Virus record (IMG/VR): IMGVR_UViG_2778261666_000008
Origin: a virus
Lineage: Duplodnaviria > Heunggongvirae > Uroviricota > Caudoviricetes
Length of the DNA stretch: 7,502 bases
Direction: 5' to 3' (one strand)
Below the pieces are notes generated by a model that saw only the letters and a list, made by a program, of their open reading frames with translations, did not search any database and was not told where the DNA came from. Both the position numbers and the translations under genes were made by a program. Shown one piece after another: positions 1,480 through 2,203 of this stretch; position 1 is the first letter of the stretch, and the number at the start of each line of letters is the position of its first letter.

Positions 1480-1824
1480 TTAGTCCTTGCGTAGCTCGCT
1501 GATTCTTCTGTAAGTCTCTGGCGCTTTGTTTCCGTGTATCTTCATTTCAGACTTCAACAGAGTAACGAGGGAATCCCATTCGTTGAGGATGCCTTTGAAT
1601 GCCGGAACGCGCTTTGCAACCTTGTCGAATGAATTTCTGATTTCTGGAATCTGCTCGACAAGTGCAACGCATCGCCGGAAGTCGGCTGCGTCATGTGGAG
1701 CGCCGAAGTGATGACCATAGATATTCTTTTTCAGTCCACATGCGATTGAGGCAAGAGTTGCGCTACTGATGCCGACATCGCCAGTCGTTTGCCATTTCAA
1801 AATCTTCATAGCCAAATCTGACAT
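1480..1824 (-). CDS. Hypothetical protein (114 aa), prophage early-region accessory gene
   Basis: Open frame with ATG at 1822-1824 preceded by GGAGA (1831-1835 on the minus strand). The upstream ATG at 1851 given by the ORF track lies inside the loop of the terminator hairpin, so the shorter start is preferred. No family recognised. Confidence 0.5.
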   Translation of the reverse strand: MSDLAMKILKWQTTGDVGISSATLASIACGLKKNIYGHHFGAPHDAADFRRCVALVEQIPEIRNSFDKVAKRVPAFKGILNEWDSLVTLLKSEMKIHGNKAPETYRRISELRKD

Positions 1825-1837
1825 TTCTTGTCTCCAA

Positions 1838-1861
1838 TAAAAAACCGCCATCAGGCGGCTT
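1838..1861 (-). terminator. Rho-independent terminator (minus strand) between the two small genes
   Basis: On the minus strand: GC stem CCGCC / GGCGG (plus 1845-1849 and 1854-1858) with a 4-nt loop, followed by UUUUUUAUU (plus A-run 1839-1844). It sits 27 nt after the stop of the 1889-2203 gene and just upstream of the RBS of the 1480-1824 gene. Confidence 0.5.
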
Positions 1862-1888
1862 GGTGTTCTTTCAGTTCTTAAATTCGAA

Positions 1889-2203
1889 TCAGCCTTTGGT
1901 CACCCAGCATTGTGAGTCACCATTACACGGGCATGAATTAACAGGTACTCTCTCGCCGCACTTACCGCAACGTTTTCTGCTGATCGATTTTATACGCCAG
2001 CGCACAAGTGCATCATCCTGGCGGCTCAGTAACGCGATGTACTCACCAAACTCGTAAGGCGCACGCCTGAAGCGACGCGTGGCACAGTTACGCTCCAGCA
2101 TTTCAATTTCCTGAGCATCAAGTACAAGCTCCAGCTTACGCATACCGGATGATGCTTGCTTGGCTCTCTGATCGGCTTTGCGCTCTGCTGCTGATTTAGC
2201 CAT
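1889..2203 (-). CDS. Hypothetical protein (104 aa) with C-terminal Cys cluster (zinc-ribbon-like, CGKCG...CPCNG...C)
   Basis: ORF with ATG at 2201-2203 and AGGA about 8 nt upstream. Charged, probably helical N-terminal half and a C-terminal C-x2-C-x8-C-x-C-x5-C motif. Co-oriented with int and xis. No family confidently recognised. Confidence 0.55.
   Translation of the reverse strand: MAKSAAERKADQRAKQASSGMRKLELVLDAQEIEMLERNCATRRFRRAPYEFGEYIALLSRQDDALVRWRIKSISRKRCGKCGERVPVNSCPCNGDSQCWVTKG

Follow-up and report, generated by a model that had tools for sequence, protein, structure and literature searches.

An orf55-end hairpin of lambda type between two small accessory genes in a prophage remnant beside fliE

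The segment between exo and xis of lambdoid phages is transcribed early from pL, and its gene content is variable near xis (PMC8614690); one of its products is the zinc-binding protein Ea8.5, for which solved prophage homologues have been cited (PMC8614690). Several small genes and hairpins of this segment stand in older phage records. In lambda, orf55 (lambdap35) ends in a hairpin followed by a T-run (...CAA GCC GCC TGA TGGCGG TTTTTT CTTGCG...), 39 nt before xis. The phage 434 record (M60848) places a frame named ORF114 between ORF55 and xis, with the terminators t'I and tL4 annotated nearby, and the homologue of 114 amino acids (aa) in the HK022 genome is gp32, described as an 'N15 early protein homolog'. 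Here we analyzed a 7,502-nt stretch of Caudoviricetes DNA (IMG/VR record IMGVR_UViG_2778261666_000008; hereafter the window), in which a 104-aa gene (1889..2203), a hairpin with a U-tract (1861-1839) and a 114-aa gene (1480..1824) follow one another on the minus strand, upstream of an excisionase and an integrase gene. The original prediction took these for two unrecognizable genes of the accessory hotspot next to xis, divided by an intrinsic terminator. The positions of both open reading frames (ORFs) and of the hairpin agree with the ORF list and a terminator scan, the genes are co-oriented with xis and int, and they belong to the variable exo-xis stretch (PMC8614690). By sequence comparison, the genes and the hairpin are nevertheless not new, since near-copies have been present for decades in the records of lambda, 434 and HK022 and epsilon15 likewise has a near-copy among its accessory genes. 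We consider it probable that they represent the distal end of a lambdoid exo-xis (early-left accessory) segment, surviving in a decayed prophage of about 9 kb by fliE.

The gene order in lambda-like E. coli prophages is humD fragment, 112-aa gene, DUF2513 gene, orf55, xis and int, and in one E. coli prophage (L101) it is humD fragment, 112-aa gene, DUF2513, orf55, ORF114 and torI. When the window is aligned with L101, positions 1477-1889 correspond to L101 1894-2306 (96.9% identity) and positions 1890-2368 to L101 3001-3491 (91.4% identity), and the intervening ~694 bp (L101 2307-3000), which comprise the DUF2513 gene and most of orf55, are absent from the window. It is because of this absence that the 104-aa gene and ORF114 are adjacent; the loss removed 8 codons from the 112-aa gene and brought the orf55 hairpin directly after it. 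The TGA at which the 104-aa ORF stops is a product of the joint itself, GGCTG|ATTCGAATT. Alignments with 434, HK022 and lambda mark positions 1851..1889 (minus strand) as an untranslated 39-nt remnant of a lambda-type orf55 3' end, with the former orf55 TGA stop at 1853-1851, within the hairpin loop. These alignments resolve the locus into a mosaic module (1477-1889) in which ORF114 is preceded by the final 39 nt of orf55 together with the hairpin and U-tract of the orf55 end, and a second module composed of the humD fragment and the 112-aa gene (1890-2368). The synteny comparison that had been proposed for this locus thus recovered the lambdoid accessory order with ~694 bp absent, and the hairpin, which had been read as a device of this gene pair, is the lambda orf55-end hairpin placed there by that absence. 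The joint of the window was found in none of 5,426 complete E. coli genomes, 2,726 of which carry one half or the other.

Conservation of the first module is high, with 95-97% DNA identity over 1477-1889 to 434, HK022, mEp phages and many Stx phages; similarity to 434 and HK022 runs to about 1477-1440. At this 3' edge, just past the ORF114 stop, a weak hairpin without a U-tract is predicted by folding (1442..1467, minus strand), and it is absent from the terminator-scan list for that strand. In the second module, the fragment of a humD/umuD-like S24 peptidase gene (2210..2368, minus strand) was recognized from RefSeq annotations of the homologous stretch, all of them partial, which read 'S24 family peptidase', 'HumD family translesion DNA polymerase' or 'DNA repair protein'. 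This fragment accompanies the 112-aa gene in other prophages, and the homology stops at window position 2368.

The hairpin has the anatomy of a rho-independent terminator, a G+C-rich stem-loop followed directly by a U-run on the transcribed strand, as had been predicted. The terminator scan lists it at 1861..1842 (minus strand) as AAGCCGCC-TGAT-GGCGGTTT followed by TTTATTGGAG, with 8 pairs, 5 of them G-C: positions 1861-1854 pair with 1849-1842 around a CCGCC/GGCGG core, the TGAT loop occupies 1853-1850 and a T6 run 1844-1839. In a 41-nt context it folds with -13.4 kcal/mol (z = -2.9), a value equalled by 2 of 200 shuffled sequences. Its stem, loop and T-run are identical to those of lambda (GCCGCC-TGAT-GGCGG-T6), in the same orientation and the same place, the early-left operon just before the recombination genes, except that the hairpin is followed by xis in lambda and by ORF114 here. 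In all three of lambda, 434 and HK022, orf55 has its stop codon within the loop, and the 5' arm of the stem encodes Q-A-A. ORF55 of 434 and HK022 finishes in the hairpin, after which comes ATTGGAGACAAGAAATG, the start of ORF114; the hairpin is conserved in HK022 and carries one core mismatch in 434. These two phages have a second hairpin, GCCGCATCAATGCGGC-T4/5, between ORF114 and xis, and it is this element, immediately upstream of xis, that the 434 record labels t'I; it is absent from the window. The window therefore shares with 434 and HK022 the ribosome-binding site of ORF114, the orf55-end hairpin before it and its position upstream of an excisionase gene, but differs in that the excisionase gene is of DUF1233 type rather than lambda type and in that the gene upstream of the hairpin is a truncated member of the 112-aa family rather than orf55. 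Overlap of the hairpin with the ribosome-binding site of the downstream gene, as originally proposed, was borne out in part: the T6 run abuts the Shine-Dalgarno sequence and stops 4 nt short of it, whereas the minimum-energy fold contains an additional lower stem (CCAA with UUGG) that masks the first two G of GGAG.

We compared the context upstream of ORF114 in 80 viral contigs (L021-L100). The orf55-end hairpin precedes the gene in about 50 of them; in about 27, orf55 is absent and hairpins of the lambda tL4 type are joined to ORF114 at TTTTATGGAGA; and the remaining type of junction, that of the window, occurs in 5. All three configurations place a hairpin with a T-run directly before the ribosome-binding site of ORF114, which is kept as TTTTAT(T)GGAGACAAGAAATG in 80/80 loci. 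Variation of the hairpin across these loci is one-sided, with a few changes of outer pairs in addition to the core mismatch of 434. Judged by this pattern, hairpin conservation is consistent with a terminator, with coding constraint on orf55 as a further contribution, and terminator action of the hairpin is predicted at the present locus. The T-run followed by the Shine-Dalgarno sequence, TTTTAT(T)GGAGA, is common to the starts of orf55 and ORF114 in the 80 contigs and is the point at which ORF114 joins two different upstream contexts; boundaries made of hairpin, T-run and ribosome-binding site may be recombination joints at which exo-xis modules are exchanged. That every small gene close to xis is preceded by a hairpin and T-run may account in part for both the insulation of this region and its exchange of modules.

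The locus is a decayed prophage remnant of ~9 kb beside fliE, as seen from the gene content of six contigs that carry the exact 104-aa protein, the frameshift of int and the truncated integrase match. The island is carried, for instance, by assembly GCA_053592715.1. In these contigs fliE is followed by int, xis, ORF114 and the 104-aa gene, and then by a 233-aa Invasin_D4-like gene on the opposite strand, a theta-like fragment, an IS3-family element, a 68-aa ORF and a YadA-like adhesin, beyond which the chromosomal genes DUF1398, zinT and a tusA-like gene close the locus. None of N, cI, cro, Q, pL, or replication, lysis and structural genes was found in the island in these six contigs. One contig that encodes the exact 104-aa protein is 99.96% identical to the entire window. 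The tyrosine integrase gene (1..1113, minus strand) is a frameshifted pseudogene of 370 aa, as compared with a 434-aa allele in contig L013, relative to which it has a 1-nt gap; the protein diverges after residue 320. It retains a Pfam Arm-DNA-bind_2 match, and because of the frameshift Pfam detects the first part of the catalytic domain only (Phage_integrase, profile positions 3-77 of 172). With int a pseudogene, the island is probably fixed in place. The excisionase gene (1159..1404, minus strand) is of the DUF1233 type (Pfam PF06806, E 2e-31; phrog_539, excisionase); its longest ORF begins at 1452, but ATG 1404, preceded by GGAG, is the likely start, and related contigs call an 81-aa product.

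For the intact ancestral phage, these observations suggest a scheme in which the genes would be transcribed from pL, at the far end of the pL operon, and the hairpins before orf55, ORF114 and xis would act as rho-independent terminators that only antiterminated polymerase (through N/nut, or put in HK022) would pass. Xis and the adjacent accessory proteins would then be made only in lytic growth or upon induction. In lambda, 434 and HK022, a ribosome terminating at the orf55 stop in the loop would cover the stem. In the remnant, 28 nt separate the stop codon of the upstream gene (1891-1889) from the stem; the coupling between ribosome and hairpin would then be lost and the hairpin would form freely. 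Here any transcript of the 104-aa gene would come from read-in or from weak promoter-like sites (2407-2380 and 2369-2342) and would largely stop at 1839-1844, leaving ORF114, xis and int silent. The proposal that expression of the 114-aa gene depends on antitermination therefore has to be moved from this locus to the ancestral phage, because the remnant lacks N, cI, Q and pL and its int is frameshifted.

The downstream gene is ORF114 of 434 (gp32 of HK022). The ORF list extends it to 1480..1851 (minus strand; 123 aa), and an internal ATG at 1824 gives the 114-aa product. A Shine-Dalgarno sequence, GGAG, can be read at 1835-1832, 7 nt before this ATG, and the start agrees with the ORF114 annotation of phage 434; distant homologues likewise begin MSDLAMK. 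The 123-aa start was rejected, as ATG 1851 falls within the loop of the hairpin and lacks a ribosome-binding site. Over all 114 residues the protein is 93.9-96.5% identical to those of 434, HK022 and mEp043, and it matches phrog_1229 (labelled unknown function) over residues 1-114 (E 1.4e-51). No match was found in Pfam, NCBIfam, PADLOC or PDB sequences, where sequence and profile searches gave chance hits only, and a Pfam scan of 56 diverse family members returned none either. With an E-value limit of 0.001, an exhaustive HMMER search yielded 1,792 cluster representatives; at 50% identity the family comprises ~1,800 clusters. Phages of the P22-like and N15/PY54-like types and of Vibrio, Mannheimia and Arthrobacter encode relatives, which are present also in genomes of many bacterial phyla (Burkholderiales, Acidobacteriota, Chloroflexota, Actinomycetota, Bacteroidota and Patescibacteria among the groups) and in one archaeal metagenome-assembled genome, of Methanoperedens. 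They share the motif W..G..G.SS.T...G...P.DP.DF.RC..L...PE.R...P.W....WD.L., and the window protein has all invariant residues of the family (G18, S20, P43, D45, D48, C52 and W83). The ratio of nonsynonymous to synonymous substitution rates (dN/dS) is 0.06 among 60 ORF114 alleles and 0.15 for the window allele against the others. ORF114 is thus a real, autonomous gene under strong constraint in phages.

Structure prediction, one of the checks first suggested, gave a confident model of ORF114, a seven-helix bundle with a predicted local distance difference test score (pLDDT) of 96. A fold search of BFVD with it returned uncharacterized relatives only; no solved structural relative of the fold was found. 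The conserved Ser, Thr and Asp residues lie at the N-termini of helices 2 and 3 of the model, where they look like helix caps and would give no argument for a catalytic site. In phages, the neighbors of ORF114 are early accessory genes (Erf, Abc1/Abc2, Lar-like, exonuclease, methyltransferase and DinI-like), and early recombination and anti-restriction genes surround it in PY54, SPN9CC and Vibrio phages. Once ORFs had been called and clustered in 29 ORF114 loci from diverse phyla, no neighbor family recurred beyond three closely related loci. The extra regions of longer proteins with an ORF114 domain (33 searched against Pfam, 10 against PHROGs) matched nothing informative, and literature searches on ORF114, tL3/tL4 and HK022/mEp213 found nothing relevant. 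Our best guess, a tentative one drawn mostly from negative results, is that ORF114 is a stand-alone, compact helical binding protein that targets a host or phage macromolecule in early infection.

Six close relatives of ORF114 (P0015, P0017, P0033, P0038, P0051 and P0055) are joined to pieces of DUF550 (dATP/dGTP pyrophosphohydrolase), ERF, Ea22-like or Kil proteins. These fusions are probably mosaic joints or frameshifted gene calls and not true architectures.

The upstream gene (1889..2203, minus strand) is, by family alignments, a member of the 112-aa family (phrog_536) that lacks its last 8 codons, so that neither protein is as unrecognizable as it had seemed: both belong to long-known, uncharacterized families. 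The 104-aa protein matches phrog_536, labelled 'transcriptional regulator', with E 6.4e-46, and has 447 relatives at E up to 0.001, nearly all of 112 aa. The family, with 72-96% identity to the window protein over residues 1-104, includes gp49 of epsilon15 and p55 of phiV10 and is also represented among P2-like phages of Yersinia, phages of Aeromonas and Pectobacterium ZF40. Several unrelated types of phage carry it as an early accessory gene; in lambdoid prophages it follows the humD fragment, and in epsilon15-like phages it stands last on the map. Unlike gp49 and p55, the window protein is not full-length, as it ends at G104 and the conserved C-terminal tail (GWHETKLxV) is cut to its G, with WHETKLxV gone. 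An alignment of 19 family sequences, including those of Yersinia, Aeromonas and Pectobacterium phages, showed K9, Q12, R13, G20, L28, C40, E54, Y55, Q62, D63, C79, C82 and C99 to be invariant and C91 nearly so, all of them present here. The C-terminal Cys cluster noted at the outset (C79-x2-C82 ... C91-x-C93 ... C99) is accordingly real. The exact 104-aa protein was found in at least 68 blocks of a draft assembly collection, a 98%-identical one is named from Escherichia marmotae, and variants of the truncated allele differ by 3 synonymous and 1 nonsynonymous changes, which are small numbers. Two E. coli prophages (L005 and L101) have the full-length 112-aa gene in a form annotated as a pseudogene, well conserved apart from an internal stop, indicating that the gene is dispensable in some lysogens.

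The 104-aa protein has some likeness to E. coli YbfE, a LexA-regulated ribbon-helix-helix protein (NCBIfam PRK11675), on which a literature search turned up papers about the SOS regulon only. In a profile comparison with hhalign, residues 9-68 of the family aligned to YbfE 38-92 (probability 80.6%, E 1.3e-5), a span that covers the basic arm, a predicted strand (RKLELVL vs KRVELKL) and two helices. The protein is not a member of the YbfE family: it scores 16.9 bits against the NCBIfam model, far under the 62-bit cut-off, YbfE has no Cys cluster, and the 104-aa protein has 5 extra residues in the loop leading into the second helix, with no G-x-S/T/N turn of the usual kind. Apart from this sub-threshold match, Pfam, NCBIfam and PADLOC searches found nothing; Pfam ribbon-helix-helix models did not match any of the 19 family members at E up to 5, and no Pfam zinc-ribbon match was found for this protein or its relatives. 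The first 22 residues form a very basic arm (pI 11). The monomer model is of low confidence (pLDDT 64.6), has no strand, and falls to pLDDT 52-70 in the Cys-cluster region. Like the 104-aa protein, lambda Ea8.5 is a small Cys-containing protein encoded in the variable ea22-xis stretch, but kinship between the two was rejected, as all PDB chains, when searched with the sequence and with the profile (E up to 10), gave chance hits only, with no Ea8.5-type protein and no sequence similarity to Ea8.5. The most likely reading of the 104-aa protein is that of a putative small dimeric ribbon-helix-helix DNA-binding regulator, which would have a zinc-stabilized C-terminal knuckle. Of the roles suggested for the two proteins, that of a regulator hence receives weak support for the 104-aa protein, and anti-defence or exclusion receives none from PADLOC or the fold search. 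No well-characterized housekeeping homologue was found for either.

Several points weigh against placing these elements at the end of a terminator-punctuated exo-xis segment, and some of them favor other readings. The stem is short, with five core G-C pairs; the mismatched copy in 434 folds no better than shuffled sequence (z -0.6); and the hairpin overlaps the coding end of orf55, such that its conservation could reflect coding constraint, as no compensatory substitution was found among the 80 loci. These same observations, with the orf55 stop in the loop, the Q-A-A encoded by the 5' arm in lambda, 434 and HK022 and the partial masking of the ORF114 Shine-Dalgarno sequence in the extended fold, would fit a hairpin that is not a terminator but the orf55 coding end, or an element of RNA stability, processing or translational coupling, with an incidental T-run. 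We find this decidedly unlikely, since a non-coding run of T6-8 is retained right after the stem in every configuration, neighbors of the same design (t'I and tL4) are annotated as terminators in the 434 record, and the configuration without orf55 again has hairpin and T-run elements directly before ORF114. It also counts against the proposed history that the two blocks differ in identity to L101, which may mean that the joint arose by recombination between phages and not by a simple deletion. As for the suggested binding role of ORF114, the evidence consists of the size and fold of the protein and of a lack of signals for catalysis or a partner.

A different doubt concerns whether either gene still does anything. 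Both ORFs could be inert relics of a dead prophage, neither expressed nor functional in the host and too recent to have decayed; int is frameshifted, 8 conserved residues are missing from the C-terminus of the 104-aa product, the 112-aa gene contains internal stops in other E. coli prophages, an insertion sequence (IS) element interrupts the island and gene fragments (humD and theta-like) are present in it, dN of the window ORF114 allele is raised relative to the phage alleles, and the minus strand shows no sigma-70-like promoter from 1825 to 2340. This explanation has some plausibility, though we think it is not the likelier one, as both ORFs are intact, the 104-aa protein is kept unchanged across so many assembly blocks, the few changes among its truncated variants are mainly synonymous and the ORF114 substitutions are conservative. 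If, conversely, ORF114 were a moron-type gene that benefits the host by phage exclusion or defence, expressed by itself and insulated by flanking hairpins, one could point to the two hairpin and T-tract elements that bracket it in 434 and HK022 (orf55-end upstream, t'I downstream), to its movement as a discrete module among upstream contexts and to its retention in a remnant stripped of nearly all phage genes. We hold this to be very improbable: the promoter-free interval just given (1825-2340) lies upstream of ORF114, which thus shows no promoter of its own, the upstream hairpin would block read-in and not drive expression, no PADLOC defence model matches, the gene in intact phages is part of the early-left lytic operon, with recombination and anti-restriction genes around it, and the family occurs in Vibrio phage records that have no annotated integrase in the 7-kb stretch examined. 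A bolder proposal, which we deem unlikely, is that the ORF114 family is an unrecognized class of single-gene early phage effectors with a new fold that neutralize a host factor or defence, and that the 112-aa ribbon-helix-helix/Cys4 family is an SOS-linked small regulator travelling with humD. We retain as the probable reading that the two genes and the hairpin are the distal part of an exo-xis segment left in a prophage remnant.

At the level of the locus the weight of this finding is low, as its parts are known and their arrangement is explained by a missing segment in a dead prophage. Its general value lies in the families: ORF114, the more interesting of the two proteins, represents a very large, strongly conserved phage family with a confidently predicted novel fold and no Pfam model, and the 112-aa family is a second widespread uncharacterized one.

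Beyond the two genes, a perfect 58-nt inverted repeat (2364-2421 / 3375-3432) encloses a 953-bp AT-rich segment (38% G+C). Its left arm starts where homology to the humD fragment of other prophages stops (2368), and outside the arms, positions 2330-2363 and 3433-3480 resemble, by eye, diverged inverted copies. The repeat could have originated by inversion, foldback insertion or recombination between two humD-like copies. The 233-aa ORF (2588-3289, plus strand) lies inside this segment and is followed by a strong hairpin (3309-3345); it was found in 6/6 related contigs, matches Pfam Invasin_D4 (E 2e-7; residues 23-101) and nothing in PHROG, NCBIfam or PADLOC, and may be a surface or adhesion-related cargo gene. 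Rfam searches found no family in the window.

Next in the island is a fragment of a DNA polymerase III theta-like (HolE-like) gene (3481-3623, minus strand), the 5' end of which is cut by the IS element; in related contigs the fragment measures 44-68 aa and matches Pfam DNA_pol3_theta. The IS3-family element itself extends over ~3616-4880, with orfA (4495-4806) and orfB (3632-4459) both on the minus strand and terminal repeats that start TGAAGTGG (3624) and TGTAGTGG (complement, 4880); a related contig without the element (L017) confirmed its boundaries. An AT-rich region (5300-6130) precedes the gene for a 456-aa YadA-like trimeric autotransporter adhesin (6132-7502, plus strand), which may resemble the prophage-borne Eib immunoglobulin-binding proteins. 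From ~6820 to 7200 this gene contains tandem repeats of 78 nt (26 aa), NESMAYTDQQVTKNNAVINQNINNAK, the copy number of which differs among related contigs.

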